DNA of 64,000 bases from Nitrospirota bacterium (GCA_016217725.1 JACRHB010000220.1:11970-75969); one strand, 5' to 3'; positions 11,649-63,368 are shown, counted from the first letter of the stretch. Made by a program: numbers and translations. Notes: generated by a model from the sequence alone, not told the origin.

Positions 11649-11651
11649 GAG

Positions 11652-11710: not shown

Positions 11711-11713
11711 TGT

Positions 11714-26304: not shown

Positions 26305-26711
26305 TGGCTGGGAACAGACATCAATTTATTCTTGGTTTGGTTGTTAAGAAGATGCGGGAAGAAGGGGCGGAGCTTTACGGCATTGATGGTAACTATCCAG
26401 GGCTCTTCGGCGAAAAAGTGCCATTGCCGCCTCAAATATTAAGACACCGCCCCGATGCGATAGGAATAAAAAGTAATGGGCAATTATGCATAGGGGAAGC
26501 AAAAACAGAGGGGGATATTCTCAATACAAGGACATATGAGCAGTTGCAGGACTTCACCAGTGTTGAAATAAACGGCTCAAAGTGCGAAGTATTTGTTGGC
26601 GCACCGCAATCCAGTGAAAATAATTTTGGAAAAAGTCTGGAGAAAACCGGATTGAAAGGATGTGATAATCTCCATGTACTTTATATTCCAGACGAAATAA
26701 TCAATGATTAA
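26304..26711 (+). CDS. small PD-(D/E)xK nuclease-fold-like protein, island gene 2
   Basis: 135 aa; ...HRPDAIGIKSNGQLCIGEAKTEGD gives the D...(E)xK spacing typical of restriction-endonuclease-like folds; start overlaps the stop of gene 1. Confidence 0.4.
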   Translation: MAGNRHQFILGLVVKKMREEGAELYGIDGNYPGLFGEKVPLPPQILRHRPDAIGIKSNGQLCIGEAKTEGDILNTRTYEQLQDFTSVEINGSKCEVFVGAPQSSENNFGKSLEKTGLKGCDNLHVLYIPDEIIND

Positions 26712-30185: not shown

Positions 30186-30187
30186 TC

Positions 30188-31021
30188 ATGTTCCATAAAA
30201 TCGTTGCTAATTTTAGAGAAGTTAGTGGAGTGTGTGAAGGGTTTGTAAAAGATGCTGTCAGAACAAATCCTGCATTACCGTTATCTTTAATTACACATAA
30301 ATTCCAACCGTTTTATTCTAATGAGTTGAAAAATAAATTTTTCAAAGAAGTTAACCTTTATTTAGACAAGGCCATGTATCAATACATAATAAGTCGTTCC
30401 CTGTTGCATGAAGGTATTTTTTCTTGGGGAGCAGTAACACAATATTATGCCAATTTCTTTGCAATTTCTGGATTAATAAGGCTACATGAAAATGGATTTT
30501 CAAGGATAGGCAATTTAGATGTAGAGGTTCAACAGCAATCTGATATATATGAAATTAGAAAAACTAAAACAGAGGGACTACACAGAATTGTTTGGTCTAA
30601 ATTTTATGCCCTATACAAAGGGTTTGATTATAAGCCTCAGATCTTTTATACAGTCTATTCACCAATTAATAATAACAATTATTTTGAATCAGACAGGCGC
30701 AATGACATTAACTACAATCCAGCATCAGGATATCAAGAAATTTATCAAACGTATAGCACGGTGAAGTCTTTAATAAAAGAGCGCACAAAAGATGCCTATT
30801 CTGCGGACAAGATTGAATTAGCAAATGAATGGATTGATTCAGATACAAGAACTCAATACAGAATCAGATTGCTCGCAAATATTATTTCTGAAATAGACGC
30901 ACTTAGTCATTTCCCTACTCACGTCAAGGAACGATTAATAAATAGAGAGAAATTTATTCAACGATATGAAACGGACAAAAGATATCGGGTTCGTTTCTTA
31001 GGCTGGTTAACAGGTGAATAG
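30188..31021 (+). CDS. hypothetical protein (277 aa), island gene 6
   Basis: No recognisable motif; AT-rich codon usage as in the rest of the operon; 3-nt gap from gene 5 and 8-nt overlap with gene 7. Confidence 0.5.
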   Translation: MFHKIVANFREVSGVCEGFVKDAVRTNPALPLSLITHKFQPFYSNELKNKFFKEVNLYLDKAMYQYIISRSLLHEGIFSWGAVTQYYANFFAISGLIRLHENGFSRIGNLDVEVQQQSDIYEIRKTKTEGLHRIVWSKFYALYKGFDYKPQIFYTVYSPINNNNYFESDRRNDINYNPASGYQEIYQTYSTVKSLIKERTKDAYSADKIELANEWIDSDTRTQYRIRLLANIISEIDALSHFPTHVKERLINREKFIQRYETDKRYRVRFLGWLTGE

Positions 31022-32396
31022 AATGAATATACTTCTTGTTGAACCAGGTTACAAAAATAAATATCCACCTCTTGGTCTTATGAAAATATCTGCATTCCAC
31101 AAACAGCGCGGTGATAACGTACGTTTTATAAAGGGACTAAACAAAGAGGTCAAAGCACAAATGTGGGATAGAATTTATATAACCACCCTGTTTAGTTTTT
31201 ATTGGAATGAAACTATTAATACTATCAGATACTATGAATACAGCATACAAGACCCTCAGAATCTTTTTATAGGCGGGCCGATGGCAACGCTTATGTCAGA
31301 CGAAATAGAGAAAGAAACAGGATATAGGCCGGTAAAGGGATTACTGAATGAAAAAAGAAAATTGAGGTTGCCGAATGATTATAAAGTTGACAGCCTGGTT
31401 CCCGACTACAGCATCCTTGAACAAATAGAGTACAAGTATCCGGCATCAAACGCCTATTTTGCTCATGCAACAAGAGGCTGTATAAGAAAATGCCCGTTCT
31501 GCGCTGTTCCCAAAATTGAACCTTTTTATACAGATTATATCCCCTTAAAGAAACAGATAATAATGATTAATGAAAAATATGGAGAAAAGAAAGACCTTCT
31601 ATTGCTGGATAACAATGTCCTTGCATCTTCACAATTTGACAAAATAATTGATGAAATCAAAGAAGCGGGGTTTTATAGGGGAGCTAAATTAAATAACAGG
31701 AACAGATACGTAGACTTTAATCAGGGAATAGATCTGAGACTCCTTACGAAAGAGAAAATGAGGCTGTTGGCTGAACTTTCCATAAAGCCTTTGCGAATTG
31801 CCTTTGACCACATTAAATTGGAGAAGGAATACGTTAAAAGAGTAGAGTGGGCTTCTGAATTCGGAATAAACAATTTATCAAATTATATCCTATATAACTT
31901 TCATGACACTCCAGAAGATTTTTATAGACGGTTAGAAATAAACATTGAACTGAATGAAAGATTAGGGACTAAAATATTTTCATTTCCGATGAAATATATC
32001 CCCATAGATAATAGGGATCGAAAGCATAAAGGCAAGTATTGGAATCTTCGATACTTGAGAGGTATTCAATGTATTTTACAAGCCACACACGGAGTCGTAA
32101 GTCCCCAAAGAGAATTTTTTCATGCAGCATTCGGGAGAAACGTCGAAGCTTTCAAAAAGCTTCTTTTAATGCCTGATAACTATATTATCTTTCGCGAAAA
32201 TCACAAGAATAATGGTACTGCTGATTGGGCTAAGATATACGATTCCTTATCTAATGAGCAACAAAAGGAATTTCACGACATAGTTTTTGAGAATCAATTC
32301 AATAATGGATTGCTGTCGAAATATTCAAAGATAAATATTCTCTTAGCTCACTATAAGGTGCCGAAACAACAAGTTTCTCTAAAAGAGCTTTCTTAG
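31014..32396 (+). CDS. radical SAM enzyme with an N-terminal B12-binding-like (Rossmann) domain, island gene 7
   Basis: Canonical CxxxCxxC (ATRGCIRKCPFCAV); the N-terminus MNILLVEPGYKNKYPPLGLMKISAFHKQRGDNVRFI resembles the N-terminal domain of class-B radical SAM enzymes; ~34% GC. Confidence 0.7.
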   Translation: MNRMNILLVEPGYKNKYPPLGLMKISAFHKQRGDNVRFIKGLNKEVKAQMWDRIYITTLFSFYWNETINTIRYYEYSIQDPQNLFIGGPMATLMSDEIEKETGYRPVKGLLNEKRKLRLPNDYKVDSLVPDYSILEQIEYKYPASNAYFAHATRGCIRKCPFCAVPKIEPFYTDYIPLKKQIIMINEKYGEKKDLLLLDNNVLASSQFDKIIDEIKEAGFYRGAKLNNRNRYVDFNQGIDLRLLTKEKMRLLAELSIKPLRIAFDHIKLEKEYVKRVEWASEFGINNLSNYILYNFHDTPEDFYRRLEINIELNERLGTKIFSFPMKYIPIDNRDRKHKGKYWNLRYLRGIQCILQATHGVVSPQREFFHAAFGRNVEAFKKLLLMPDNYIIFRENHKNNGTADWAKIYDSLSNEQQKEFHDIVFENQFNNGLLSKYSKINILLAHYKVPKQQVSLKELS

Positions 32397-32604
32397 TGTA
32401 GAAAGATTTCCAACCTGACAACTATGGCAAGCCATAACACAGAATACAATCCACCCGGAGAAATAATGCAGGAGGAAAATCTTGACTAGGCAGGTAACCC
32501 CGAACAGATACGCCACCCTTATTGAACGTCTTGCGGACATTATCCATTTCGCATGGACAACCGCGCCCGCTTCTTGATATTTTCGTCGTCAAATAGCATG
32601 ATAT

Positions 32605-33777
32605 ATGACGACGATGGCGACAAAGGCGAAAAATCACGATGATATTTATATCGATAGAATATTGAGCCTGCCGGGGCTGTTGGAGAAAAAATCCTATTTC
32701 CTTTTCGGGCCCCGCCAGACGGGGAAATCGTCCCTTATCCGGCATACCCTGAAGGGCGCAAAGGTCTACGACCTCCTGGACACATCGATATTTCTGGCTC
32801 TGAGTCAAAACCCAGGCCGTCTGTCCCAGGAATTGAGCGCCGGAGACCGGATCGTGGTAATCGATGAAATACAGCGCCTGCCCATTCTGCTCAATGAGGT
32901 TCACCGGCTGATTGAAGAGAGAGGCCTTCGTTTTTTGCTCACCGGCTCGAGTGCCCGGAAGCTCCGCGGCGGCGGCGTGAACCTGCTTGGCGGGAGGGCG
33001 CGTACGAAAAATCTGCATCCTCTCACCTGCCGGGAGCTCGGGCGGCATTTCGACCTGTTCCGTGCAATCGAACGCGGCTTGCTGCCGTCCATATATTTTT
33101 CGGATGATCCACGCGCGGATCTTCGCGCCTATGCAGGCTCTTACCTGCAGCAGGAGATTATTGCCGAAGGGGCCGCCCGCAATGTGCCTGCCTTCAGCCG
33201 TTTCCTGAAGGTTGCCGCATTATGCAACGGCACGATCGTCAATTTTACTAATATAGCCAATGATGCCCAGGTGCCCCGCACGACAGTGTACGAGTATTTC
33301 GAGATCCTCAAAGACACTCTTATCCTCCACGAGCTTCCTGCCTGGCGCCGGTCATTAAGGCGCAAGCCTTTGGCCTCCTCGAAGTACTATTTTTTTGATA
33401 TCGGCATAGTGTCGGAGCTGCAGGGTCGAAGATTCAGGCCCGGCACGCCTGAATTCGGAGAGGCCTTTGAGACATATATTATGCATGAGCTCCGAAGCTA
33501 TATCGATTATATTTCTGCCGAGCCTCTCAGCTACTGGCGGTCGACGTCAGGTTTTGAGGTGGATTTCATCCTGGGCGATCATACGGCCATTGAGGTGAAG
33601 GCAAAAGAGAATGTATCGGTACAGGAGCTTAAATCGCTGCGTGCCCTTAAGGAAGAAAAGATATTGAAGCGCTACCTTTGTGTAAGTCTCGAATCCCGTA
33701 CAAGAACGGTCGACGGAATTATTATTCTGCCATACCGGAAATTTCTCGACGGCTTATGGAGCGGAGAGTATTCATGA
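32605..33777 (+). CDS. AAA-family ATPase (AAA_14 plus DUF4143 architecture)
   Basis: Walker A GPRQTGKS, Walker B VVIDEIQ; C-terminal DUF4143-like region; GC-rich (~60%). Confidence 0.85.
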   Translation: MTTMATKAKNHDDIYIDRILSLPGLLEKKSYFLFGPRQTGKSSLIRHTLKGAKVYDLLDTSIFLALSQNPGRLSQELSAGDRIVVIDEIQRLPILLNEVHRLIEERGLRFLLTGSSARKLRGGGVNLLGGRARTKNLHPLTCRELGRHFDLFRAIERGLLPSIYFSDDPRADLRAYAGSYLQQEIIAEGAARNVPAFSRFLKVAALCNGTIVNFTNIANDAQVPRTTVYEYFEILKDTLILHELPAWRRSLRRKPLASSKYYFFDIGIVSELQGRRFRPGTPEFGEAFETYIMHELRSYIDYISAEPLSYWRSTSGFEVDFILGDHTAIEVKAKENVSVQELKSLRALKEEKILKRYLCVSLESRTRTVDGIIILPYRKFLDGLWSGEYS

Positions 33778-33836
33778 TCCTGGGCAAGCTGTGGTAAAAT
33801 CGCTTTGTCCGGTTAAGCCCGGAGAGAGGAGGGCGT

Positions 33837-34367
33837 ATGGAAATCAAAATCAACAAAAGCACATTGTCACTGGTTGAAGGCGATATTACAAAACAGGACA
33901 CGGACGCAATAGTGAATGCGGCGAATAAAACCCTTCGCGGCGGAGGCGGCGTTGACGGGGCGATCCACAGGGCGGGCGGCCCGAAGATCCTTGAGGAATG
34001 TATAAAGATTGGCGGCTGCGAGACCGGCGAGGCTGTGATAACCACGGGCGGGAATCTCAAGGCCAAATATGTAATCCATACGGTCGGTCCGGTTTACAGG
34101 GACGGCCTGCACAATGAGCCGAAGCTTCTTGAGAACGCTTATAGAAACAGTCTGAAACTTGCTTCGTCGAAGGGTATAAAAAGCATCGCCTTCCCGTCAA
34201 TAAGCACGGGAGCTTACGGTTATCCATTGGAAGATGCAGCGGAGATCGCATTAAAGACCGCGATTAATTATCTCTGGGAGCATCCCGACATAGAACTGGT
34301 CCGTTTTGTCCTTTTCGGACAGAAGACGCTTGAGGTTTATGAGAAGAAACTGAAGCCACTGGTTTAG
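33837..34367 (+). CDS. macro-domain protein (O-acetyl-ADP-ribose deacetylase, YmdB/MacroD-like)
   Basis: 176 aa; DIT..DAIVNAAN..L.GGGGVDGAIHRAAG and ...AFPSISTGAYGYP motifs. Confidence 0.9.
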   Translation: MEIKINKSTLSLVEGDITKQDTDAIVNAANKTLRGGGGVDGAIHRAGGPKILEECIKIGGCETGEAVITTGGNLKAKYVIHTVGPVYRDGLHNEPKLLENAYRNSLKLASSKGIKSIAFPSISTGAYGYPLEDAAEIALKTAINYLWEHPDIELVRFVLFGQKTLEVYEKKLKPLV

Positions 34368-35111: not shown

Positions 35112-35204
35112 TCCGTCTCTCCTTTATAAAAGCTGTAAGACTTTATCAATATAAGCTGATTATGTCAATGAATAAGAAAAGTTAAAAGTTAAAAGTTGAA
35201 AGTG

Positions 35205-35260
35205 TAGCGTTGGGGTTTATCCCCAACGAAAAAATCGCCCCCAATAAATGAGGGCGCTAC
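35205..35260. repeat. GTAGCG...CGCTAC twin-hairpin element, copy 3, flanked by (AAAAGTT)n words
   Basis: gtagcgttggggtttatccccaacgaaaaaatcgcccccaataaatgagggcgctac, preceded by aaaagttaaaagttaaaagttgaaagt. Confidence 0.55.
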
Positions 35261-35388
35261 TTAACTTTTGATATTCGTGGCTAAACGCCGTTTTCAGGCT
35301 TGTTGAATTGTGTGTTCGGAGGGGAGTGTGAGAGACCGGAGGGAGGCTGTCCCTCCGGTCTGTTCGATTGTTTTATGATCGGAAGCCG

Positions 35389-40704: not shown

Positions 40705-41526
40705 ATGTCGGACCATACCAACCATGAGCATGATCACCATCATGACCACCACCAGGAACACGAGCATCACCATGAGCATGAGCACCAGCACGATCATCAT
40801 CATGACCATGATCATAAACCCGTAAAGGTTAAATTCAGAAGCTTCAAGATGGACAGGGCTTTTGCCTTTGACCCTAAGAAGGGCGAGAAGGGAATAATAA
40901 CCTATACTATAACGGAGCCTGCGAGGATAAGCATAAAGGTAATTAAAAAAGGGACGAGAGAGCTGTACCTTTCGACTATATTAAACTGGGAAATGCGCGA
41001 TGCGGGGACGCATACCGAGTACTGGGACGGTAAGGATTACAGCGGTAATATCATTGAAGACCTGTCTTCGGTTTTAATGGTGATGGAAGGAGAGCCGATG
41101 TCTACGTTCAAACCCGGCGCTTATTCCGTCGAAGGCCTGTCGGACGAAGAGATCATACACGGCCATAAATGGGGACATCCTCATAATTACTATCAGGAAG
41201 GCACAAATGTAATACCGGTGATCTCGATAACTTCCGTCAAAGACGGAGACGTTCTTTCAGGTATTGTGAAAGTTGAATCAAGGCTTGAAACGAGCGAAAG
41301 AGGCTACGGTGAAAAAGTCGGCTACGGCGTCAGGTACTATTTAAATAATATTCTTGTGACCGAAGAATTTTATGACTCAAAGAGCGACGGTAAATTTTCG
41401 TATGACATCGATACGACCGCCTTCCCCGACGGGGAATATATGCTGTACGTAGGGATGTGCGATCATCATCAGCACACAACCTCAAGGGGCTGCAAGGTTA
41501 AGATAAACAACAATTCCGGGAATTGA
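40705..41526 (+). CDS. His-rich (N-terminal HDHHHDHH..HEHEH..) Ig-like/FlgD-like beta-sandwich protein
   Basis: The N-terminal 37 aa are >60% His/Asp/Glu; the rest is paralogous to 42027..42737 (FDPKKGEKGIITYTITEPARISIKV / FDPALGKPATISYKLTKAGTIRLRI; YWDGKDYSGNIIED / QWDGRDASGNIIDN). Confidence 0.6.
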   Translation: MSDHTNHEHDHHHDHHQEHEHHHEHEHQHDHHHDHDHKPVKVKFRSFKMDRAFAFDPKKGEKGIITYTITEPARISIKVIKKGTRELYLSTILNWEMRDAGTHTEYWDGKDYSGNIIEDLSSVLMVMEGEPMSTFKPGAYSVEGLSDEEIIHGHKWGHPHNYYQEGTNVIPVISITSVKDGDVLSGIVKVESRLETSERGYGEKVGYGVRYYLNNILVTEEFYDSKSDGKFSYDIDTTAFPDGEYMLYVGMCDHHQHTTSRGCKVKINNNSGN

Positions 41527-42026: not shown

Positions 42027-42737
42027 ATGAGCATAGATTCAAAAGAAAAAAATGAAGGGACGAATAAGCTGCATAAGATAAAGATAAATACGCCGGATAC
42101 GGGATATGAGCCTTTCCCGGTATATATAATCAACAGGTCTACATATGAAGCGCTGAATTTCGATCCGGCGCTCGGCAAGCCTGCGACCATCTCGTATAAG
42201 CTGACTAAGGCCGGCACGATACGACTGAGAATTGCAAGAAGGGATAACCCCGGGCTGATACTCTTAACCCTTCTGGACTGGACCGAACAGCCGTTCGGTG
42301 AACATAAAGTCCAATGGGACGGCCGTGACGCGTCGGGGAATATCATCGACAACAAAAAAATATTGATACACTTTGACGCCAAAGACCAGGCCTTAGGCGG
42401 GAAACATCGGGAGCATGACAAACTCAACTGCGGTGATCCGAAGCTTATTATCAAGACAAATCCGGAGACGCTCCGGAACATTAAAGGTAATTTAGAGCTC
42501 AGGGCTTCTTTTTCCGACGGACCGGACCGGATAAAATGGAGCTCCGGCTGCGAGGTCAAATATTTTATTGATTACGGTCTGATTAAAAAGGAAGTCTTTC
42601 AGAAAGTTCAAAACGAGTTCTCTCTTGTAATAGACACTTCAAAGTTAAGCGCCGGCGAGCATCTCATCACTGTTAATATCAGCGACATGAACGATCACGT
42701 GGGAACCGCCGGTTTAAGAATTACCGTCGCCGGTTAA
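42027..42737 (+). CDS. Ig-like/FlgD-like beta-sandwich protein, paralog of 40705..41526, lacking the His-rich N-terminus
   Basis: Shared blocks as listed for 40705..41526. Confidence 0.6.
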   Translation: MSIDSKEKNEGTNKLHKIKINTPDTGYEPFPVYIINRSTYEALNFDPALGKPATISYKLTKAGTIRLRIARRDNPGLILLTLLDWTEQPFGEHKVQWDGRDASGNIIDNKKILIHFDAKDQALGGKHREHDKLNCGDPKLIIKTNPETLRNIKGNLELRASFSDGPDRIKWSSGCEVKYFIDYGLIKKEVFQKVQNEFSLVIDTSKLSAGEHLITVNISDMNDHVGTAGLRITVAG

Positions 42738-42943
42738 AAAATTACGTATGCCTAAGAACGGGCACATGATCAGATTTGGAGCTGGAGCACCATAAGCATA
42801 CTCATATAATCTCGTCGCTTCACATGTGACGCTGCCTGAAATATCAGGAAGCGGCTTGAGCTAACGCCGTAAAAGAAATTGCACATATCCTTCCCGGCTG
42901 CAGATATGTATATGTGACCGAGAGGGCGAAGCATTGCCGATTA

Positions 42944-43099
42944 CCGTGATCCGTGTCCGTTTAACGTGACCGTAAAAGAGGAAGGATCAATGAACAATGT
43001 GCAATTAACAATTAAAATCTCGCTTCCGCAATTGCTCATTGATAATTGTTCATTGTTAATTGTTTTTACGGACACGTTAACCGGACACGGTTCACAAGA
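42944..43099. repeat. ~155-bp long hairpin element (GTGTCCG / CAATGAACAATTG words) immediately upstream of cbiM; partner copy at 46001-46165 downstream of cbiO
   Basis: Outer arms cgtgatccgtgtccgtttaacgtgaccgtaaaa / ttttacggacacgttaaccggacacggttcac; inner palindromes caattaacaatt and caatgaacaat/attgttcattg. Confidence 0.7.
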
Positions 43100-43111
43100 A
43101 AGGAATACCCC

Positions 43112-44134
43112 ATGCATATCCCCGACGGTTATCTGAGTCCGCAAACGTATATACCTCTTTACGGGATAATGCTCCCGGTCTGGTACTGGGGCTCCAGGAT
43201 ATTAAAGAAGACTTTAAATGCGCGGCAGATACCTTTTTTGGCCCTCGGCGCCGCTTTTTCATTCGTCATCATGATGTTCAATATCCCGATACCCGGCGGC
43301 TCGACGGGGCATGCAGTCGGCGCTGCATTGATCGCAATTCTGTTAGGACCGTGGGCGGCGCTTATGGCCGTATCCATGGCGCTCATAATACAGGCGCTGC
43401 TTTTCGGCGACGGAGGGATTACCGCAATAGCGGCGAACTGTTTTAATATGGCTTTTATAATGTCTTTTTCAGGATATTATATTTATAAGCTTCTGAGTTT
43501 AAATTCCGGCTCCAATATCGCCCGAAGGGTCTTTGCTGCAAGTGTGGCGGCGTATATATCTATAAACCTGTCCGCCTTTTTTACCGCTGTAGAATTTGGA
43601 ATTCAACCGTACATTGCGCACAAGCCGGACGGCACTCCTTTGTACGGGCCTTACGGCTTGAACGTAGCGGTCCCGATAATGACGATTGAGCACCTTGCAT
43701 TTTTTGGATTTGTAGAGGCGCTGGTGACGGGATTGGTAGTCGCTTACATTGCGAAGACCGAGCCGGAGATGCTGAACATCTCCACTCCTGCGTTACAGAC
43801 GGCAGCAGACCGGCCGGCTTTTTCAAAGACGGCGAAAAGGCTCTGGATCGGACTCGCCGTACTTATTATTCTGACGCCCCTCGGGCTTATCGCCTCAGGA
43901 ACCGCATGGGGAGAATGGGGAGCGGAGGATCTGCTCGCAATATTCGGCTTTGTGCCTCAGGGGTTGAAAGGGCTTTCTAACGTTTGGCATTCTTTTTTCC
44001 CGGATTACTCGGTTCCGGGGATGGAGGGTCCCTTAATGCTTGCAGCGGGATATATCCTCTCCGCGCTTATCGCTACGGGTTTGATAGTGTTGACGGCCTT
44101 CGTCATCAGCAGGATAATGTTCAGAGGAAGATAG
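43112..44134 (+). CDS. cbiM: ECF-type cobalt/nickel transporter substrate-capture component CbiM/NikM with an extra C-terminal 2-TM (CbiN/PDGLE-like) extension; start at MHIPDGYLS
   Basis: Hallmark N-terminus MHIPDGYLS; ~7 TM in the first 245 aa; additional ~95 aa with 2 TM. Confidence 0.85.
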   Translation: MHIPDGYLSPQTYIPLYGIMLPVWYWGSRILKKTLNARQIPFLALGAAFSFVIMMFNIPIPGGSTGHAVGAALIAILLGPWAALMAVSMALIIQALLFGDGGITAIAANCFNMAFIMSFSGYYIYKLLSLNSGSNIARRVFAASVAAYISINLSAFFTAVEFGIQPYIAHKPDGTPLYGPYGLNVAVPIMTIEHLAFFGFVEALVTGLVVAYIAKTEPEMLNISTPALQTAADRPAFSKTAKRLWIGLAVLIILTPLGLIASGTAWGEWGAEDLLAIFGFVPQGLKGLSNVWHSFFPDYSVPGMEGPLMLAAGYILSALIATGLIVLTAFVISRIMFRGR

Positions 44135-44135
44135 A

Positions 44136-45065
44136 TTGTCTTTCCATTGGCTTAAAACAGACCACAGCCTTCCACCGGCTCCTCAGTCAAACGGAGCTCC
44201 AAATAAGAAGGGATACCTCGAGAAGACCCTCAGGGAGATCACGTCGTTTTTTGTCAACGGGATATTCTCGGAGGAGACAACCGCAAAGGCGGGATTTCTT
44301 CAGGCGCTGGACCCCAGGGCCAAGGTTTTTACCCTGGGGATTTTCGTTATAGCGGTCACCCTGTATAAAAACATCTACATCCTACTCGGCGCATACGCAT
44401 TTACTATTTTATTAGCGCATCTTTCAAAAATCGGCATCGGATTTTTTCTGATCCGAGTCTGGCTTTTTATCCCGCTGTTTTCAGGGATCATAGCCCTTCC
44501 GGCGGTGCTTAATATCTTTGTCCCGGGGGATCCGCTTGTTGACCTTGTTACATTAGAAAAAGAGATTATGCTTGGCCCGCTGAAAATTCCTCAGACCGTC
44601 TCGGTGACGAAACAGGGACTTTTATCGGCGTCCGTATTTGTTATGAGAGTTGCAACGTCGGTATCCCTTGTAGTGCTTCTGACCCTCACGACAAAGTGGC
44701 CTCATATTCTGAAGTCGCTGAGCGTATTCAGGGTGCCCCAGTTCTTCACCTTTATTCTCGGCATGACGTACAGGTACATACATCTGCTATTGCGGCTTAT
44801 TGAAGACGTGCATCTTGCGCGGCGAAGCAGGACTATTGGAAAGGAGAAGGCGAGCTCGGGACGGAAATGGATCATATCACAGATAAGGTTTGTCATGAAG
44901 AAGTCGCTCAGCACGGGGGAGCAGGTTTATTCGGCTATGGTTTCAAGGGGATTTATGTATGAGCTGAAGACAGCCGATAATTTCAAGATAAAGCCTATTG
45001 ATTATGCCTGGTCGGCGTTTGCCGTCACTGTAACGGCTGTCACACTGGTGTTAAATTGGATATAG
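44136..45065 (+). CDS. cbiQ: ECF transporter transmembrane (T) component CbiQ
   Basis: 309 aa; 5-6 TM; Arg-rich cytoplasmic loop (...HLARRSRTIG...) typical of EcfT/CbiQ coupling helices. Confidence 0.8.
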   Translation: MSFHWLKTDHSLPPAPQSNGAPNKKGYLEKTLREITSFFVNGIFSEETTAKAGFLQALDPRAKVFTLGIFVIAVTLYKNIYILLGAYAFTILLAHLSKIGIGFFLIRVWLFIPLFSGIIALPAVLNIFVPGDPLVDLVTLEKEIMLGPLKIPQTVSVTKQGLLSASVFVMRVATSVSLVVLLTLTTKWPHILKSLSVFRVPQFFTFILGMTYRYIHLLLRLIEDVHLARRSRTIGKEKASSGRKWIISQIRFVMKKSLSTGEQVYSAMVSRGFMYELKTADNFKIKPIDYAWSAFAVTVTAVTLVLNWI

Positions 45066-45117
45066 ATTCAAATAAGGAGGCTGAACGCCTCCTTGAATTA
45101 TCTTTGGGAAGTTTGAT

Positions 45118-45999
45118 ATGGACATAGACATCAAATTAGATTCGGAGCTCGACAATATCTTTGAAGTCAGAAACCTTCATTACTCTTTCCTGGGAAGATA
45201 TCCGGCGCTGTGCGACGTTTCCTTCGATGTTAAAAGAGGAGAAAGGGTGGTCGTGCTCGGGGCCAACGGCTCCGGGAAGTCAAGCCTCATGAACCTCCTT
45301 GACGGACTGGTTTTCCCACAGAAGGGCGAGATCAGATTCATGGGGCGGGAGATAAGCGAGCAAAATCTGAAGGATGAGAATTTCAACAGGTTCTTCAGGA
45401 ACAAGGTGGGTTTTGTATTCCAGAATTCCGACGTCCAGCTCTTTTCGAGCACTGTTTGGGATGAAATCGCGTTCGGCCCTTTGCACCTCGAGCTGCCTCA
45501 CGATGAGGTGAAAGCGAGGGTTGAAGATATATCGGGCCTGTTAGGGATAAAGAAATTGTGGGAAAGGGCGCCGTACCAATTGAGCGGCGGCGAGAAGAAA
45601 AAGGTAGCCATTGCATCCACGGTCGTCGTCAATCCGGACGTCCTTTTATTGGACGAGCCGACAAACGGCCTGGACCCGAGGAGCCAGGCCGAGCTTGTCG
45701 ATTTCCTGCAGGAGCTGTATCAGGCGGGCAAGACGATAATAATCTCCACTCATGACCTGAACATCGCCAAAATGATCTCGGACCGCGCGATAGTCCTGAA
45801 TGAATCCCATACCGTTGAGGCTGAAGGAGCCACCCGCGACATCCTTGAAAACACCGAGCTCCTTCTGAAAGCCAATCTCATCCATGAGCATATACATTGC
45901 CACGACGGCGAGATCCACAGGCACCCTCACGGCCACGTCGGAGAGCACGACCACGAGCACGGCCGCGGCCATGCGCACAAACACAGTCATAAGCATTAA
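45118..45999 (+). CDS. cbiO: ECF transporter ATPase CbiO with a C-terminal His-rich tail
   Basis: Walker A GANGSGKSS, signature LSGGEKKKVAIA, Walker B LLLDEPTNGLD; the C-terminal ~40 aa HEHIHCHDGEIHRHPHGHVGEHDHEHGRGHAHKHSHKH. Confidence 0.9.
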   Translation: MDIDIKLDSELDNIFEVRNLHYSFLGRYPALCDVSFDVKRGERVVVLGANGSGKSSLMNLLDGLVFPQKGEIRFMGREISEQNLKDENFNRFFRNKVGFVFQNSDVQLFSSTVWDEIAFGPLHLELPHDEVKARVEDISGLLGIKKLWERAPYQLSGGEKKKVAIASTVVVNPDVLLLDEPTNGLDPRSQAELVDFLQELYQAGKTIIISTHDLNIAKMISDRAIVLNESHTVEAEGATRDILENTELLLKANLIHEHIHCHDGEIHRHPHGHVGEHDHEHGRGHAHKHSHKH

Positions 46000-46000
46000 A

Positions 46001-46165
46001 ACTCATACGTGTCCGGTTAGCGTGTCCGTGTCCGTAAAACAATTATCAATGAACAATTACCAATGAGCAATTGCGGCAATAGTTTTTTAATTGTTAATTG
46101 CACATTGTTCATTGATCATTCCTCTTTTACGGTCACGAAAAACGGACACGGATCACGAAATCGGT
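46001..46165. repeat. ~160-bp long hairpin element downstream of cbiO (partner of 42944-43099)
   Basis: acgtgtccggttagcgtgtccgtgtccgtaaaacaattatcaatgaacaatt...aattgttaattgcacattgttcattgatcattcctcttttacggtcacgaaaaacggacacggatcacg. Confidence 0.7.
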
Positions 46166-46169
46166 TGAT

Positions 46170-46889
46170 ATGCCTTCCGTTGCCGGAATAAAAGCGAGAG
46201 ACGGTTATCTGTTTTTCGTCAACGCCTTGACCGAAGATCCCAGGAACACATCGGCAGTCGTCGAATTGAGCGACCGCTGCGGGGCCTTGGTCCTTACGAG
46301 CAATGAGAAGCAATTGCAGAGATTAAATAACGTCCTCAATAAGTGCGTATCCTGTACACTGAATAAGACGGATGACTTAAGCGATGACCTCGTCAACAAG
46401 GCCGTCTCTTTTCTGAAGAAAGAATTTCATGAGGAGCCGTCGTATAAGACCAAACCTCTGACCTTCCTCCTTCTCGTGGTCGGGACGAACAGTGGCGCGC
46501 AGGGGCGACTTGAATACATCTATATAAGGCACAGGGTTTCGGAAAGGCTTGAAAAAGAGGGCGCGCGGGAGTTCGTGACAACGTTTGACGTAGAGCCTCC
46601 CGTGCCTGCGCATAATGTCTTTTACGGCGATTCGGACATTATCCAGTATCTTGCGCAGCAGGCGGACGGAGAGAATATCCCGATGAATGCCGTCAAGATC
46701 CTGGCCTGTCTTTCAATCCCCGAAGCTTACTATAAGGATAGCGCATTACAGTCAGGCGTCAGCATGGCGTTGCTCTCTGCTGAAAACGGTTTCGAATGGG
46801 TCAGGACGGATGAAGTTCTTTCATTGGCCGACAAAGCTGAAAAAGTTAATTCAATGCTTGTCGAAGGGCTGAATGATATATGGACATAA
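46170..46889 (+). CDS. hypothetical protein, weak proteasome alpha/beta-fold-like N-terminus
   Basis: VAGIKARDGYLFFVNALTED...VVELSDRCGALVLTSNEKQ loosely resembles the proteasome-subunit pattern TAVGIKGKDGVVLAVEK...KIFKIDDHIGCAFAGL; no Thr1. Confidence 0.35.
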   Translation: MPSVAGIKARDGYLFFVNALTEDPRNTSAVVELSDRCGALVLTSNEKQLQRLNNVLNKCVSCTLNKTDDLSDDLVNKAVSFLKKEFHEEPSYKTKPLTFLLLVVGTNSGAQGRLEYIYIRHRVSERLEKEGAREFVTTFDVEPPVPAHNVFYGDSDIIQYLAQQADGENIPMNAVKILACLSIPEAYYKDSALQSGVSMALLSAENGFEWVRTDEVLSLADKAEKVNSMLVEGLNDIWT

Positions 46890-47557
46890 TCGAAGGCATA
46901 GAAAAAAGAAAGAGCATCAGGGCCTTCAAGCCTGATCCGGTGCCGAGGAAAGCCCTTGAAAAAGTCTTGCAAGCCGCTGTTGCCGCGCCTTCCAAAGGCA
47001 ATTCGCAGATATGGGAGTTCGTCGCCATTACCGGTAATGAGCTGAAAGATATCAAGGTGATGCTCGGGGAGCTGCTTAAAACCGACTTTATCCCTTTAAT
47101 GAAGCTAACGGATGAAGAAGCGCCAAGCCCCGCCCTTGAAAAGGCAAAGATCAGGAGCAGCCGGAATAAAGAAGAGATGTCAAAGATATTAAATCCGATG
47201 GGCCTTGATTTTGATGACTTTATGCTTGAAGGGACTTTCAGATTCTTCGATGCCCCCGCAGCCGTTATGGTTTTCATAGAGGATATTTATTTGAAAAACC
47301 TTCCCCATCTTTTAAGTGTCGGGGCGGCGGTCCAAAATATGCTGTTGTCCGCGCAGACGCTCGGGTTAGGCACGTGCTGGATAGGAGGCGTATGGAGATA
47401 TACAAAGCAGATAAGAAAGATCCTTGGAATACCTGATAACAAGATGCTGGTCTCATCGGTAGCCATAGGATATCCTGATAACGACTCTCCGATAAACAAA
47501 TATAAATCAGGCAGGGACTCTATCGACGATTTGGTTCAATGGAAGGGATTTGAATAA
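46880..47557 (+). CDS. nitroreductase-family (FMN-dependent) oxidoreductase
   Basis: N-terminal RKSIRAFKPDPVP...L..AAVAAPSKGNSQIWEFV and C-terminal CWIGG nitroreductase signatures. Confidence 0.85.
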   Translation: MDIIEGIEKRKSIRAFKPDPVPRKALEKVLQAAVAAPSKGNSQIWEFVAITGNELKDIKVMLGELLKTDFIPLMKLTDEEAPSPALEKAKIRSSRNKEEMSKILNPMGLDFDDFMLEGTFRFFDAPAAVMVFIEDIYLKNLPHLLSVGAAVQNMLLSAQTLGLGTCWIGGVWRYTKQIRKILGIPDNKMLVSSVAIGYPDNDSPINKYKSGRDSIDDLVQWKGFE

Positions 47558-47660
47558 ATCCCCCTACATCCCCCTTTTTCAAAGGGGGACCTTCCCCTCT
47601 AACAAGAGGGGTTAGGGGTGTGTTCCCCTCTTTTGCAAAGAGGGGTGAGGGGAGATTTTC
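47556..47660. repeat. CCCCTC/GAGGGG hairpin-cluster repeat, copy 3 (starts inside the nitroreductase stop codon)
   Basis: aaatccccctacatccccctttttcaaagggggaccttcccctctaacaagaggggttaggggtgtgttcccctcttttgcaaagaggggtgaggggagattttc. Confidence 0.7.
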
Positions 47661-47683
47661 AGATCAAATAAAGGAGCAGTATT

Positions 47684-48400: not shown

Positions 48401-48567
48401 CCACGAATAAACACGAATGAACACGAAGGAATAAAAAAACAAAAAATGAATTTGGACGCAGATAAACGCAGATTATCAAGATTTAAAGAAACAAACTTAT
48501 CTGCGTATATCCGCGAAAATCTGCGTCCTAATTTTATTCGAGTTAATTCGAGTTAATTCGTGGCTAA
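48397..48567. mobile_element. ~170-bp MITE-like element with 12-bp perfect TIRs TTAGCCACGAAT/ATTCGTGGCTAA; second copy at 63155-63323
   Basis: Perfect TIRs; internal inverted repeats (ggacgcagat...atctgcgtcc) and ACACGAAT word repeats; ~85% identity between copies; the left TIR contains the TAG stop of 47684..48400. Confidence 0.7.
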
Positions 48568-48611
48568 AAAGTTTTTTTAGTATTTAACACATAGTAAAAG
48601 GAATAAAACAT

Positions 48612-50120
48612 ATGAACGTGATCTTGGTTCAACCCGCGACTTCGGACAGGGGATTTATTCATCTGGGATTGGGCTTTATTGCAGCCTCCCTGGAGCAAAG
48701 GGGGCATAAGGTAAGCATCCTCGATCTCGGGATAGAAGGCGAGTCCTCAAAAAAGATAAGAAGGATAATCCAGGAGGCGGCCCCGGAAGTGGCGGGGATA
48801 ACGGCGCTTACCCCTACTTATCCGACGGCGCTCAGGATGGCGCAGTTGATAAGGGAGATAAATCCCCGGTGCATAACCGTCTTCGGAGGGACTCATCCCA
48901 CTATATTGACCGAGGAGGTCCTTAATGAGCCCTTCGTGGACATTGTGGTAAGGGGCGAAGGGGAGATAACCATGTGCGAAATATTGGACGCCCTGAAGGA
49001 CGGAAAAGGCCTTTCGAGTATTTCAGGCATTGTCTATAAGGAAAACGGGAAAACGGTCTATAACCCCGACAGGCCTTTCATAGAAGACCTGGACACTCTC
49101 CCGCCGATACCCTGGCATCTCTTTAAAGTGGAAAAATATACCGGCAACCTGAACGGGAGAAGGGCGGTGGGCCTCTCCGCTGCCAGGGGATGTCCTTTCA
49201 GTTGTGTCTTTTGCTACAGAGGCCCGGCTGCCGGCAAGGTCGTAAGGTACTGGAGCCCTGAAAGGGTCGTAAAGGAGGTCAAGCGCGTTAAGGAAAAATA
49301 TAATATAACGGCCTTCCACTTCTGGAACGACGTATTTACTTACGACAAAAAGTGGGCGATCACCCTGTGCGATATGATCATAAAGGAGAAACTGGACATT
49401 GAATGGGACTGTCAGACCAGGGCGGACCTGATCAATGAGGAAGTATTGAGGAAGATGAAAGAGGCGGGCTGCACCGCGATAATGTTAGGCGTGGAGAGCG
49501 GGAGCAATGAGATCCTGAAGCACGTGAACAAGAAGCTGACCAAAGAGCAGATATATGACTCCTTCCAATTGCTCCATCAGGTGGGTTTTGAGACCACCGC
49601 AACTTTTACAATGGGTCTTCCCTGGGACACCAAAGAGACCATCCAGGAAACCATCGATTTCGCCAAGGCGATAAACCCGAGTTTTGCGATGTTCTACGTA
49701 GCCACTCCGTTCCCCGGCTCCCCCATCTGGGAGATCTGCCTTCAGAAAGGGATACCGCTTTCGAGAGACTGGGAGAATTACAGGATCATTCCTTTTGAGA
49801 TAGACCTCGATAAATTCGCCCCTGTCTTTGATACGTCCAGATTGTCCGTAGAGGATTTAAAGAGGTTCATCAAGACCGCCCAGATAGAATTTCAGGTCGG
49901 CAGATTTAAAAAGGGGCAGAGATTAAGGGGTCTGAAAAATATCTACGAGATCTTCGCCTTGATATTCAGACGGAGCAAATCGGTGACAAAGCTGATGCAA
50001 TTGATTTTCAGGGTGCTCGGGGATACGCTCTATCTCATCAGAATAAAGTGCAGAAGTGCAAAAGTGCAAAAGAGCAATAGCGCAGAAGAGCAGAAGAACA
50101 AAAGTGCAAAAGAGCAATAG
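48612..50120 (+). CDS. B12-binding domain radical SAM protein; the C-terminal tail is encoded by a word-repeat
   Basis: MNVILVQP...HLGLGFIAASLEQRGHKVSILD B12-like domain; CxxxCxxC (ARGCPFSCVFCYR); the last ~25 aa (KCRSAKVQKSNSAEEQKNKSAKEQ) read through the GTGCAGAAG repeat. Confidence 0.85.
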   Translation: MNVILVQPATSDRGFIHLGLGFIAASLEQRGHKVSILDLGIEGESSKKIRRIIQEAAPEVAGITALTPTYPTALRMAQLIREINPRCITVFGGTHPTILTEEVLNEPFVDIVVRGEGEITMCEILDALKDGKGLSSISGIVYKENGKTVYNPDRPFIEDLDTLPPIPWHLFKVEKYTGNLNGRRAVGLSAARGCPFSCVFCYRGPAAGKVVRYWSPERVVKEVKRVKEKYNITAFHFWNDVFTYDKKWAITLCDMIIKEKLDIEWDCQTRADLINEEVLRKMKEAGCTAIMLGVESGSNEILKHVNKKLTKEQIYDSFQLLHQVGFETTATFTMGLPWDTKETIQETIDFAKAINPSFAMFYVATPFPGSPIWEICLQKGIPLSRDWENYRIIPFEIDLDKFAPVFDTSRLSVEDLKRFIKTAQIEFQVGRFKKGQRLRGLKNIYEIFALIFRRSKSVTKLMQLIFRVLGDTLYLIRIKCRSAKVQKSNSAEEQKNKSAKEQ

Positions 50121-50212
50121 TGCAGCGCCGGGAAGACTGACTTTCATTGTTTTCCCTTTTGCACTTCTGCACTTTTGTACTTTTGCACTTCTGCACTTTT
50201 GTACTTTTGCAC
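50048..50212. repeat. long hairpin of GTGCAGAAG/TGCAAAAG words (left arm coding, right arm reverse complement)
   Basis: gtgcagaagtgcaaaagtgcaaaagagcaatagcgcagaagagcagaag... / ...ttttgcacttctgcacttttgtacttttgcacttctgcacttttgtacttttgcac. Confidence 0.7.
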
Positions 50213-50233
50213 TAAAGAATCAAGAAAAATTTA

Positions 50234-51448
50234 ATGGACTACAACAAATTAAAAGAAGCCGTCATCACTGAAATCGATAAGCTGGCGGAAGAGATGAAGG
50301 CCGTTGCAAAGGCCATTCATGAAAAACCCGAAATAGGTTATCAGGAATACGAAGCCTCACGGCTCCTCTGCGGCTTTCTCGAAAAAAACGATTTTAAAGT
50401 GAAGCGCAATATCGCAGGGATGGAGACGGCTTTTGCCGCCTCCTATCCTGAAAAGGCGGACGGTCCGACAATCGCCTTGTTGGCCGAATATGACGCCCTG
50501 CCCGGCCTCGGGCACGGATGCGGACATAACCTCATCGGCACTGCGAGCGTCGGGGCTGCCGTCGGATTAAGTAAGGTTTTACCGAAGCTGAAAGGAAGAA
50601 TAGCTGTAATGGGCTGTCCTGCGGAAGAGGCCGGGATAGACAACGCAGGGGGGAAGGTCCGGCTGATCAAAAAAGGATCATTCAAAGATATCGACGCCGC
50701 GTTCATCTTTCATCCCTTCCCCATGACGACGGTCGGGGGAGAGACCACAACGCTGCTCGGGCTTGAATTTAATTTTAAAGGTAACCCCGCACATGCCGCA
50801 GGAAATCCCTGGGACGGGATCAACGCGCTGGACGGTGTATTGCTGACCTTCAACGCGATCAACGCCCTCAGGCAGCATATACGCGACGGCGTGCGCATTC
50901 ACGGCATCATAACCCACGGAGGCGACGCCCCGAATATAGTGCCGGAAAAGGCGTCCGCGCGTTTCTTTCTCCGCACGGAGAATAAAGAGTCTCTGCTCGA
51001 GATAATTCAAAAGGTCAAGGCCTGCGCCGAAGGGGCGGCGACGGCGACGGGGACCAAGCTTGAGGTCAATACTTTCTGCAATCTCTATGACTCAATGAAG
51101 AGCAATTCCGTTCTCGCAAGTATCCTCGAAAAGAACCTGAACGCACTCGGCTTGAGCGTTGAAGGCAGGAAAAAGGGGAAAGGCTCCACGGATTTCGGAA
51201 ACGTGACAAGGGTTGTGCCTGCCTGCGAGCTGGGCCTCAGGCTCGGAAACGGCATCGTCCCGCACACGAGGGAGTTTTTGCACGCGGCGAATTCCGAAGA
51301 GGGCTTCAAGGTAATGATGCAGGGAGCAAAGGTGCTGGCCTTAAGCGCGCTGGACCTTCTCTACTCGGACGGCTTACTTGAGAAGGCGAAAAAGGAATTT
51401 GAAGGAGTGCAGAAGTGCAACAGTACAAAAGTGCAAAAGGAAAAATAA
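50234..51448 (+). CDS. M20-family amidohydrolase (M20D; hippurate hydrolase / aminobenzoyl-glutamate utilisation-like)
   Basis: 404 aa; ...ALLAEYDALPGLGHGCGHNLIGTASVGAA... metal-binding region; the C-terminal tail (VQKCNSTKVQKEK) is encoded by the repeat. Confidence 0.85.
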   Translation: MDYNKLKEAVITEIDKLAEEMKAVAKAIHEKPEIGYQEYEASRLLCGFLEKNDFKVKRNIAGMETAFAASYPEKADGPTIALLAEYDALPGLGHGCGHNLIGTASVGAAVGLSKVLPKLKGRIAVMGCPAEEAGIDNAGGKVRLIKKGSFKDIDAAFIFHPFPMTTVGGETTTLLGLEFNFKGNPAHAAGNPWDGINALDGVLLTFNAINALRQHIRDGVRIHGIITHGGDAPNIVPEKASARFFLRTENKESLLEIIQKVKACAEGAATATGTKLEVNTFCNLYDSMKSNSVLASILEKNLNALGLSVEGRKKGKGSTDFGNVTRVVPACELGLRLGNGIVPHTREFLHAANSEEGFKVMMQGAKVLALSALDLLYSDGLLEKAKKEFEGVQKCNSTKVQKEK

Positions 51449-51517
51449 AGAAGGACCATCTTCCGGAAGCCGGTCTTCTGAACTTTTGATCTTCTGCTCT
51501 TTTGCTCTTTTGCACTG
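51407..51517. repeat. GTGCAGAAG/TGCAAAAG word-repeat hairpin, copy 3
   Basis: gtgcagaagtgcaacagtacaaaagtgcaaaagg...tcttctgctcttttgctcttttgcac. Confidence 0.65.
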
Positions 51518-51526
51518 TTTGAAAAA

Positions 51527-52711
51527 TTGATAAAAATTTTTCTAATTGGCTGGTTCGGCGCGGGGAACGTCGGGGATGAGGCGATACTCCTTACGGAATT
51601 GTTGGCGATAAGAAACAGGATAAAGGGAGCAAGGTTTTATATTTTATCTTTTGATAAAGAGAAGACCAAAAAACTTACCGGCGAAATTTCCGAAGTCGAA
51701 AGGATCATTGAGCTCGGCGCCAAAAAGAGATTTTTTAGATCGGATTTCAGGGGGTTGCTGAGCGCGTTCAAAAATTCCGATGCGGTCGTAATAGGCGGTG
51801 GCGGCATTTTTCAGGACCTTTACAATTACTATCCGGTCCCGTTTTTTACCTTAATGGCCCTTATGGCGAGACTATTCAGGAAGCTGCTTGTGCTTCACGC
51901 CGTCGGGATAGGCCCCCTTAACAAGCTTATCAGCAGGAGATTGTGCAGGACGGCCGCCGGGCTCGCGCACATGATCTCTGTAAGGGACTTTGAATCAAAA
52001 GAGCTTTTAAAAGAAATCGGGGTAAACAAAGAGATACACGCAGCGGCGGACCCTGTCTTTTTGCTCAGGGACCTGCTCGGGGAAAAGATCGAAAGACTTA
52101 TGGACAGGCATAAAACCGGCAAAGAACGGCCCACAGTCGGGATCTGCATCCAGAACCTCCTTTCCTGGAGCCGGGATAATAAGCAGGCGCTTGCCGCTGC
52201 GCTCGACGCACTTGCAAGAGAAAGAAATACGCGCCTCGTGTTTATACCTTTCGGCGTTTACCCGGACGGATGGTTCCGAAAAGAAGATACCGAGCCTATA
52301 GACGTTATCGCCTCCAAGGAGCTGGCAGGCCTGCTGAAAAGCGAGCATTCCATTATGACGTCGCATACGACCCCCGAAGAGACCATGGCCGTTATCGGGG
52401 GGCTGGACCTTGTGATCAGCATGAGACTTCACGGAATAATCATGGGCCTCAGTATGGGTGTGCCGGTCCTCGCGCTTACATACGCCGACGAGTCAAAGAT
52501 AAGCAACCTCATGAAGCGGGTAGGGCGTGAAGAAGACGTCTTCCATGTAAACGATCTGGATGCTGAAAAATTACTGAGCAGGCTAAAAGCCGTTCTTGCA
52601 AGAAATGACGAATTCAAGAGGGACCTAAGAGAAAAGGTAATTCATTTAAAGAGGGAAGCTGAAAAAAGTTTTGAGCTATTGTCGGGAAGATTATCGCTGT
52701 CGCCCCATTAG
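51527..52711 (+). CDS. polysaccharide pyruvyl transferase family protein (CsaB/WcaK-like)
   Basis: IFLIGWFGAGNVGDEAIL...AVVIGGGGIFQD... and ...LVISMRLHGIIMGLSMGVPVLAL matching the PS_pyruv_trans family. Confidence 0.8.
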   Translation: MIKIFLIGWFGAGNVGDEAILLTELLAIRNRIKGARFYILSFDKEKTKKLTGEISEVERIIELGAKKRFFRSDFRGLLSAFKNSDAVVIGGGGIFQDLYNYYPVPFFTLMALMARLFRKLLVLHAVGIGPLNKLISRRLCRTAAGLAHMISVRDFESKELLKEIGVNKEIHAAADPVFLLRDLLGEKIERLMDRHKTGKERPTVGICIQNLLSWSRDNKQALAAALDALARERNTRLVFIPFGVYPDGWFRKEDTEPIDVIASKELAGLLKSEHSIMTSHTTPEETMAVIGGLDLVISMRLHGIIMGLSMGVPVLALTYADESKISNLMKRVGREEDVFHVNDLDAEKLLSRLKAVLARNDEFKRDLREKVIHLKREAEKSFELLSGRLSLSPH

Positions 52712-56863: not shown

Positions 56864-57023
56864 AGCCAATTTGTAGAAATTTGCGGCTGATATCTTTTCC
56901 TCCTGCTGGTTCAATCTTGTAGATTGAACCAACCGTTTAACAGACATTAAATATAAAGGTTCAAACTACAAGCCTGAACCAGCAGAGTCGGCTGTTAGCT
57001 GATAGCTGTCAGCTTTTTACATC

Positions 57024-61510: not shown

Positions 61511-61575
61511 TTGATTATTTGCCACAGAGAACACAGAGGACACAGAGGAAAATAGAAGATGAGCGCGTGCAGAGA

Positions 61576-63138: not shown

Positions 63139-63154
63139 TCCTAAAAAACGGGAA

Positions 63155-63323: not shown

Positions 63324-63368
63324 TAAGGTTGTTAGGGTAATCACAGTATGAAAGGAGATTTCAACAAC

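Follow-up and report, generated by a model that had tools for sequence, protein, structure and literature searches.

We describe here a hairpin-forming repeat of about 150 bases, one copy of which precedes, and another follows, an operon for nickel/cobalt uptake, cbiM-cbiQ-cbiO, in a groundwater Nitrospirota genome (GCA_016217725.1). The analysis covered a stretch of 64,000 nt that includes the operon (hereafter the window), and all copy counts are counts within it. The two copies, which we call elements A and B, are mutually inverted. We favor the view that they are opposite-orientation copies of a palindromic repeat, nested and non-coding, of the kind of the repetitive extragenic palindromes (REPs), the bacterial interspersed mosaic elements (BIMEs) or the miniature inverted-repeat transposable elements (MITEs), and we regard this as probable. 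The genome is saturated with such hairpin repeats.

Element A extends from 42945 to 43095 and element B from 46008 to 46164, as delimited by repeat search, blastn and folding; this bears out the placing in an earlier note on the same DNA. The two are about 90% identical over 122-132 nt. The repeat search of the window returned inverted arms at 42945-43066 and 46036-46157 (122 nt, 90% complementary, 2969 nt apart), and blastn aligned A with B over 132 nt at 90%. That the copies share most of their sequence had been noticed earlier; their inverted orientation is an addition: between CGTGATCCGTGTCCG and CCGGACACG, B aligns with A as its reverse complement, and a flank of about 6-7 nt (CCGATT) is also common to both. 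Both elements, each of about 150 nt, begin with CGTGATCC, and their tails are GGTTCACAAG and AAATCGGTTG. The hairpin of A ends at 43095, 16 nt upstream of the cbiM ATG at 43112. The similarity of B to A starts at 46008, 9 nt past the cbiO stop codon (45997-45999), and runs to 46157, such that the end of B is 5 nt, and the end of its hairpin 12 nt, upstream of the next ATG (46170). Upon folding as RNA, A and B reached −63.4 and −59.6 kcal/mol, with a z-score of −6.2 each and none of 200 shuffled sequences as stable, in agreement with their first description as long imperfect hairpins. The outer arms of A (42945-42977 and 43063-43095) pair nearly perfectly and constitute terminal inverted repeats, as in a MITE. 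The divergence of 10% between A and B and a gene order that matches that of relatives led us to reject an assembly artefact as the origin of the pair.

Both elements are nested composites, in which an outer hairpin made of CGTGTCC-type units holds an inner hairpin in its loop. The outer left arm of A (42945-42977, plus strand; sequence, fold and alignment) consists of units of about 7 nt, CGTGATC, CGTGTCC, GTTTAA, CGTGACC and GTAAAA, whose complements form the outer right arm (TTTTTACGGACACGTTAACCGGACACGGTTCAC; 43063-43095, plus strand; sequence, fold and blastn). The inner part (42978-43062, plus strand; sequence and fold) comprises an unpaired bulge, GAGGAAGGAT, followed by the inner heptamer hairpin, with the units CAATGAA, CAATGTG and CAATTAA and their complements. 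Element B (46008-46164, minus strand; repeat search, fold, alignment and blastn) is the whole composite, outer arms and inner hairpin, inverted. The position of the inner hairpin is that at which stand-alone outer hairpins have a loop of only 4-15 nt.

A search for a 20-nt outer-arm pattern found four occurrences in the window, with 0.02 expected, and the window contains two full and two partial copies of the element. The partial copies had been pointed out before as shorter relatives, and both are real, but each is related to one part of the composite only. The first, at 8229-8290 between aroA and dsrH, is a stand-alone short outer (CGTGTCC) hairpin that matches the outer arms alone (25 nt at 92%); the second, at 20650-20725, is a TGAACAA/TTGTTCA heptamer hairpin and a weak relative of the inner part alone (17 nt at 94%). 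These two and elements A and B are all intergenic, between co-directional genes. When genome contigs were scanned with the outer-arm pattern, stand-alone outer hairpins were found in Nitrospirae metagenome-assembled genomes (MAGs; two in L001, others in L004 and L006), in bacterium BMS3Abin06 (L010) and in Geobacteraceae (L012, several), and the left outer arm alone in a Syntrophaceae MAG (L007). The core of these hairpins, CGTGTCCGKTT...AAMCGGACACG, is nearly invariant, with one position covarying as G:C or T:A; among the short outer hairpins, two of the 15 pairs covary and the others are invariant. The outer-arm pattern had no match in viral contigs, and element A had none by blastn in plasmids and phages. 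The pattern of the composite junction, CGTGWCCGTAAAN{0,30}CAATGAACAAT, gave two matches in JGI metagenomes, both by chance in high-GC coding DNA.

The operon was then compared with that of seven related lineages (L017/L018, L019, L023, L024/L025, L028/L029 and L030). The block common to them consists of genes for a methyltransferase, a His-rich 275-aa protein and proteins of 90 and 233 aa, nikR, cbiM, cbiQ, cbiO, and genes for a 243-aa protein, a nitroreductase and a 235-aa protein. In all seven lineages cbiM (with the PDGLE domain), cbiQ and cbiO are found at the same site, and none has the A/B pair. The identity of CbiM, CbiQ and CbiO to those of the closest relative, L017, is 82, 75 and 86%, and that of the products of the flanking genes 54-90%. 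Because synteny is kept in the relatives and identity is similar inside and outside the operon, this comparison shows, as judged from gene order and protein identity, that the operon, which codes for a NikR-type Ni/Co importer of the energy-coupling factor (ECF) class, is ancestral and vertically inherited at its site and no cassette, and that A and B are lineage-specific additions. The suggestion of a mobilisable cassette, made in the earlier note, is thus refuted by the shared site in seven lineages and the even identity, together with the finding of no transposase or recombinase in the window. Replacement of the operon by horizontal gene transfer was likewise ruled out by the even identity across the block.

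The gaps at the two ends of the operon differ among these lineages. The cbiM leaders of L019, L023, L024, L028 and L030 contain a conserved motif only and no element. The leader of L017 has the motif, then the left outer arm alone, then a homologous ribosome-binding site; that of the window has the motif, then the full composite, then the same ribosome-binding site as L017. Both A and B are absent from their sites in L019, L023, L024, L028 and L030, a presence/absence polymorphism of the kind seen with MITEs. The gap 3′ to cbiO holds a hairpin of the AGTTGTT family in L017 and one of the CCCCCT/GGGGAG family in L028/L029; in the window, the first family has members at 3153-3217 and 11649-11713, and the second at 47556-47671. 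In L019, L023 and L024 this gap is of 16-35 nt and without a hairpin, and in L030 it is of 57 nt with one small GC hairpin. The remaining gaps of the block are expanded in the window only, the orthologous gaps being short or holding other families. Such a pattern is that of mobile or rapidly turning-over repeats.

The same kind of repeat is found throughout the window. Each intergenic gap of at least 50 nt was folded, and strong hairpins (z ≤ −3) were detected in 18 of 35, including 15 of 29 gaps between tandem genes, both convergent gaps and one of four divergent gaps. The hairpins belong to about a dozen unrelated families, mostly of the form (short unit)n-loop-(complement)n with tandem units of 7-10 nt, and unit sequences such as AGTTGTT, AAGTGCAR, GAGTTAA, GCTGWYA, CACAGAGRA and more. 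Besides the two AGTTGTT hairpins already mentioned, examples are at 5500-5583, 12955-13111, 50038-50232, 51397-51535, 56864-57023 and 61520-61550. Hairpins are also present within the pheA-hisC-tyrA-aroA gene string, and thus not all of them can be strong terminators. Nesting recurs in a second composite pair, with outer CACGAATRAA arms and an inner GCAGATWA hairpin (48401-48583 and 63138-63333; 88% over 144 nt, 14.7 kb apart), and in a composite whose outer AAAGTTA arms enclose two small GC hairpins (35190-35290). Copies of one family are often neighbors, as are those at 50076-50195 and 51400-51519, which flank one gene. We estimate that hairpin repeats make up roughly 4-5% of the window. The earlier note had allowed that the elements might prove to be generic REP-like DNA; this is largely the case, in that more than half of the gaps hold hairpin repeats, but the specific composite is known from two copies only.

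GC-rich pairs of small hairpins bracketed by GTAGC...GCTAC are found at 6425-6488, 10491-10554 and about 35213-35262, and resemble GTAG-tagged REP doublets (REPIN-like); in view of these doublets, a REP-associated tyrosine transposase (RAYT) may exist elsewhere in the genome. A hairpin-poor region, 24089-34367, carries defence-like genes (Schlafen/AlbA_2, HATPase_c_4/HTH, SNF2 helicase, DndB-like, radical SAM, DUF4143 ATPase and Macro domain).

If A and B are repeats of this kind, the pair could have arisen in three steps. A CGTGTCC outer hairpin would first have entered the cbiM leader in a common ancestor with L017, the polarity of this step being our inference, and L017 would later have lost one arm, the left arm remaining. 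A CAATGAA-type heptamer hairpin would then have come into the loop of the outer hairpin in the lineage of the window. Finally, the composite would have been copied, in inverted orientation, to the gap that directly follows cbiO, 3 kb downstream and the next intergenic one that was free, presumably by an enzyme acting in trans or by recombination or template switching. Transcribed with the operon, A and B would form stem-loops of about 70 bp in the 5′ and 3′ untranslated regions (UTRs), and these could shield the ends of the RNA or be targets of RNase III; such effects have been reported for REP and Correia elements. It is possible that A and B affect the nik mRNA, at most as a side effect. The precise bracketing of the operon would then result from where free gaps are, and would not reflect a designed regulatory unit.

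Several observations do not fit easily with this scenario. No target-site duplication is found at the flanks of A (GATTAC...AAGAAA) or B (TCATA...AAATCGG), and no transposase, recombinase or RAYT domain was detected in any of the open reading frames scanned in the window. The outer-hairpin core is conserved between phyla, as REP-type repeats usually are not, and only two copies of the specific composite are known. Moreover, A and B differ at 8 of 109 paired positions and at 8 of 39 unpaired positions, so that the stems are less diverged than the loops, possibly because they are under some constraint. Also, the occurrence of three hairpin families at the cbiO 3′ gap could reflect selection for a 3′ hairpin instead of neutral insertion.

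The genes of the operon itself are as assigned in the earlier note, an assignment borne out by Pfam and NCBIfam. cbiM (43112-44134, plus strand) codes for a 340-aa fusion of CbiM with a PDGLE domain (PF01891, PF13190, NF005598; 100% identical to MBI5410251.1 from a Nitrospirae/Nitrospirota MAG). cbiQ (44136-45065, plus strand) codes for the T component of the ECF transporter, and cbiO (45118-45999, plus strand) for an ATPase with a His-rich C-terminal tail, both according to domain searches. Nickel is indicated as the metal that the transporter would import, by NikR, by the presence of HycI/HypF as neighbors in L017 and L021, and by the His-rich CbiO tail. His-rich stretches are present at the N-terminus of an upstream 273-aa protein (40705-40830) and in the C-terminal tail of CbiO (HEHIHCHDGEIHRHPHGHVGEHDHEHGRGHAHKHSHKH, 45900-45996), and are consistent with metal handling. 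The cbiQ-cbiO gap (45066-45117) is of 52 nt, with a small hairpin, TAAGGAGGCTGAACGCCTCCTTG, that pairs the Shine-Dalgarno-like AAGGAGG; in relatives, cbiQ and cbiO overlap by 10 nt.

Upstream of element A, tblastn with the NikR proteins of five relatives revealed a nikR pseudogene (42748-42910, plus strand), in which the N-terminal 15 codons (42748-42792) are followed by out-of-frame remnants of residues ~79-127, and the ribbon-helix-helix part is deleted. An intact nikR is found at the same position, directly upstream of cbiM, in L017, L019, L023, L024, L028 and L030. The alignment of six leaders identified a conserved motif, ATATGTGACCGAGAGGGCGAAGCATTGCC, at 42910-42938 (plus strand), with the form AATGTAACTGAGAGGGCGGAGCAGTG in relatives; it precedes cbiM also in L017, L019, L022, L023, L024, L028 and L030, and the distance from the motif to the ATG is 25-37 nt in relatives. 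In several relatives the motif is the right half of a palindrome, for example CTGTTAGTTGCATAAATGTAACTGACAG in L023. This region is probably the promoter/operator region of the operon, and the motif is a candidate NikR operator/promoter that is slightly degraded in the window. Thus, the earlier statement that no NikR box was recognised needs correction, since a nikR pseudogene and the conserved motif lie just upstream of A. A CbiM paralogue, MBI5410201.1, 78% identical to the CbiM of the window, is encoded outside the window. A protein identical to it adjoins an intact nikR on L016, in the arrangement P-II, nikR, porin-like (Phenol_MetA_deg), cbiM. With an accession number 50 apart from that of MBI5410251.1 and a recorded contig of equal length, MBI5410201.1 is probably encoded on the same contig as the window, where an intact nikR beside the paralogue would supply NikR in trans. 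The ribosome-binding region of cbiM, AAGAAAGGAA (43096-43105, plus strand), is left unpaired by hairpin A and is homologous to AATAAAGGAG in L017. In scans of 42500-46400, no terminator-like site was found at A or B, which do not show the pattern of a stem followed by a U-tract, and one weak promoter-like site was found within A (42991-43018, 9/12), the counts of such sites not being above those in shuffles.

An alternative to repeat insertion, which takes up the transcriptional insulation suggested in the earlier note, is that A, in the 5′ UTR, and B, in the 3′ UTR, act together as an RNA insulation or processing module that defines and stabilises the nikMQO transcript. They could do so via two local hairpins or via long-range pairing of A with B, in which a duplex of about 150 bp would enclose the operon as a loop and serve as substrate of RNase III; the module might compensate for the decay of the local nikR. 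Because they are inverted copies on one probable transcript, the A and B RNAs are mutually complementary, and the cofold of 42937-43100 with 46000-46170 reached −222.5 kcal/mol, as compared to −62.5 and −55.5 kcal/mol for the two separately (about −118 kcal/mol). A control pair from another family showed almost no cofold gain. Apart from this large gain, the lower divergence of the stems, the free ribosome-binding site, the hairpins at the cbiO 3′ gap in three lineages, and the location of both elements within the likely transcript, between the conserved leader motif and the next gene, argue for such a module. However, no compensatory change was found among 59 pairs compared between A and B (46 unchanged, 7 broken in B and 1 with a one-sided change), the sequences being too few for a firm reading. 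Furthermore, four of the seven syntenic lineages keep the operon without a repeat-family hairpin at either position, L030 having its small GC hairpin after cbiO, and local hairpins would form first during transcription. Since an intact nikR is probably present at the paralogous locus of the same contig, there would also be nothing to compensate. We consider it unlikely that A and B constitute a module of this type.

We also have doubts about a more far-reaching possibility, that the pair is the tip of a population of undescribed, very small self-propagating hairpins, with tandem units of 7-10 nt as arms, that would home into hairpin loops and into the 3′ ends of transcription units and cross phyla without a known transposase; the pair would, in addition, form a 150-bp UTR duplex and thereby an RNase III-dependent expression unit. 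Homing into 3′ ends would fit with the independent arrival of three families in the gap after cbiO and with the placing of CGTGTCC hairpins at the ends of CRISPR arrays.

At the CRISPR arrays, CGTGTCC-type hairpins are found directly after the last, degenerate repeat in the Geobacteraceae MAG L012 and in bacterium BMS3Abin06, L010 (arrays of 17 or more and of 12 repeats). The coordinates are 4535-4700 in L010 and 3480-3650, 6560-6840 and 7360-7640 in L012. In a Nitrospirae MAG (L001, 1-170) a CGTGTCC hairpin lies beside an orphan repeat, probably a CRISPR end too. The junction is shared, the repeat being followed by GG(A/T)AAAG(G/A)nCGTG, and the repeats concerned are of the types ...ATTGCGAC and ...ACTGAAAC. 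Cas1 follows one of the hairpins in L012. In the same MAG, a gene for a 23S rRNA-intervening-sequence protein (PF05635, Avd-like four-helix bundle; 6847-7194) is flanked by CGGACAC-type arms; with the matching left arm 576 nt away, this gene could sit in a hairpin loop.

A further idea, that a nucleoid-associated protein or another DNA-binding protein recognises the arms of A and B, is improbable; it follows the proposal made for the "global regulator binding sites" of Geobacter metallireducens. The architecture does match the paired sites of tandem 7-9-nt repeats described there (Aklujkar et al. 2009, PMC2700814). Conservation of the left-arm sequence CGTGTCCGKTTAACGTGACCGTAAA extends to distant taxa, and half elements are found in L017 and L007. 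However, a dozen unrelated unit sequences share this architecture in the window, more than a single protein could account for; a candidate protein is not known, and the proposal for Geobacter is itself only putative.

Even less probable is that A and B serve as a DNA recombination substrate, whereby the inverted repeats would flip the 2.97-kb operon relative to its promoter, as an on/off switch, or mobilise it as a cassette. The segment does lie between inverted repeats of 122 nt and 90% identity, with the leader/promoter motif beyond them. Gene order and orientation, however, are as in all relatives and inheritance is vertical, no recombinase or transposase is present among the open reading frames scanned in the window, and a divergence of 10% lowers RecA recombination. 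As for a metal-responsive 5′ leader (riboswitch or attenuator) that would control cbiM, as the earlier note envisaged, a large stable structure does lie directly upstream of the ribosome-binding site, with an upstream-ORF-like start (GAGGAAGGATCAATG, 42990), but the idea is without support and close to refuted: the same sequence, with this start included, is found in antisense at the 3′ end of the operon, the element is absent from the leaders of L019, L023, L024, L028 and L030, and relatives use NikR. Moreover, as the earlier note had it for the cobalamin riboswitch, the Rfam scan of the window returned no cobalamin, NiCo or other match; no family reached the gathering score, and none was credible at E ≤ 10 (chance miRNA and snoRNA matches, E 0.66-7). 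The reading frame that begins at 42990 has a good Shine-Dalgarno sequence (GAGGAAGGA), runs through the right arm and ends at 43139, 28 nt into cbiM. Since the region around this start is conserved to the same degree in B, the antisense copy, the frame was rejected as a leader peptide and is probably no gene.

As repeats of the REP, BIME or MITE kind, A and B would be part of a lineage-specific bloom of palindromic repeats, and hairpins that flank operons in such MAGs should not be annotated as cassette borders, riboswitches or terminators. On a small scale, the locus shows cleanly how repeats turn over at orthologous gaps and how one hairpin family is nested in the loop of another. It also draws attention to a hairpin core common to Nitrospirota and Desulfobacterota-type MAGs and found repeatedly at the ends of CRISPR arrays. 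If the long-range pairing of A with B were used, the pair would be an mRNA analogue of the stems from which rRNA is processed.

In size, as hairpins in UTRs, in their occurrence in either orientation and in their presence or absence between relatives, A and B resemble the Correia elements of Neisseria and ERIC/IRU, MITE-like imperfect palindromes of 100-155 bp. RNase III processing and the creation of promoters are documented for Correia elements. Unlike these, A and B are built from two nested families, lack a TA target duplication and lack defined terminal inverted repeats for which there is a cognate insertion sequence (IS). An autonomous IS with the same ends as A and B was not seen in the window or in the retrieved loci. 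The transporter itself resembles the ECF importers Nik(MN)QO and CbiMNQO, which are reportedly controlled by NikR, in having CbiM with PDGLE, CbiQ and CbiO, nikR directly upstream in relatives, HycI/HypF in L017/L021 and His-rich tails, but the local nikR is a pseudogene in the genome of the window. The RNase III processing stems of 16S and 23S rRNA are comparable to an A:B pair only in their possible working, the pairing of end sequences into a duplex that encloses a transcript; A and B each also fold on themselves, they are not conserved in relatives, and their processing is putative. Heptamer repeats occur in cyanobacteria as the STRR sequences, intergenic tandem arrays, alongside nested "small dispersed repeats", tiny elements inside other repeats. 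The TAACTGA heptamer repeats show one unit in unrelated phyla without a known vector (MacGregor 2015, PMC4679880). In contrast to A and B, the STRR and TAACTGA repeats are mostly direct arrays that do not form hairpins from arms and complements, and their sequences are unrelated to A and B.

The REP/BIME sequences of enterobacteria and the RAYT-associated REPINs of Pseudomonas are, like A and B, extragenic hairpin palindromes that occur in either orientation, mostly in co-directional or convergent gaps, and form mosaics. REP elements are transcribed into the ends of mRNAs and can stabilise RNA (Di Nocera 2013, PMC3733652; Bertels & Rainey 2011, PMC3116915), and are by definition short palindromes of 20-40 nt, one end of which carries a GTAG or CGTC tag that stays unpaired (PMC3733652). 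A and B differ from them in being of 150 nt, with arms that are arrays of 7-nt units, in the absence of the GTAG/CGTC tag from both copies, and in that no RAYT was seen in the window. The outer core of A and B is common across phyla, unlike REPINs, each of which is strictly confined to a lineage, and only two full copies are known. In architecture, A and B match the paired sites of G. metallireducens, which are intergenic, consist of three to five tandem units of 7-9 nt with their complement on the other strand at a variable distance, fall into several families per genome and have been read as IHF/HU sites (Aklujkar et al. 2009, PMC2700814). The unit sequences differ, and nesting and the flanking of an operon are not described there, so that the likeness, units plus complements, defines an architectural class and no homology family. 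A and B are best filed as new members of the known REP/BIME/MITE-like intergenic palindromes, with an architecture already noted in G. metallireducens (PMC2700814).

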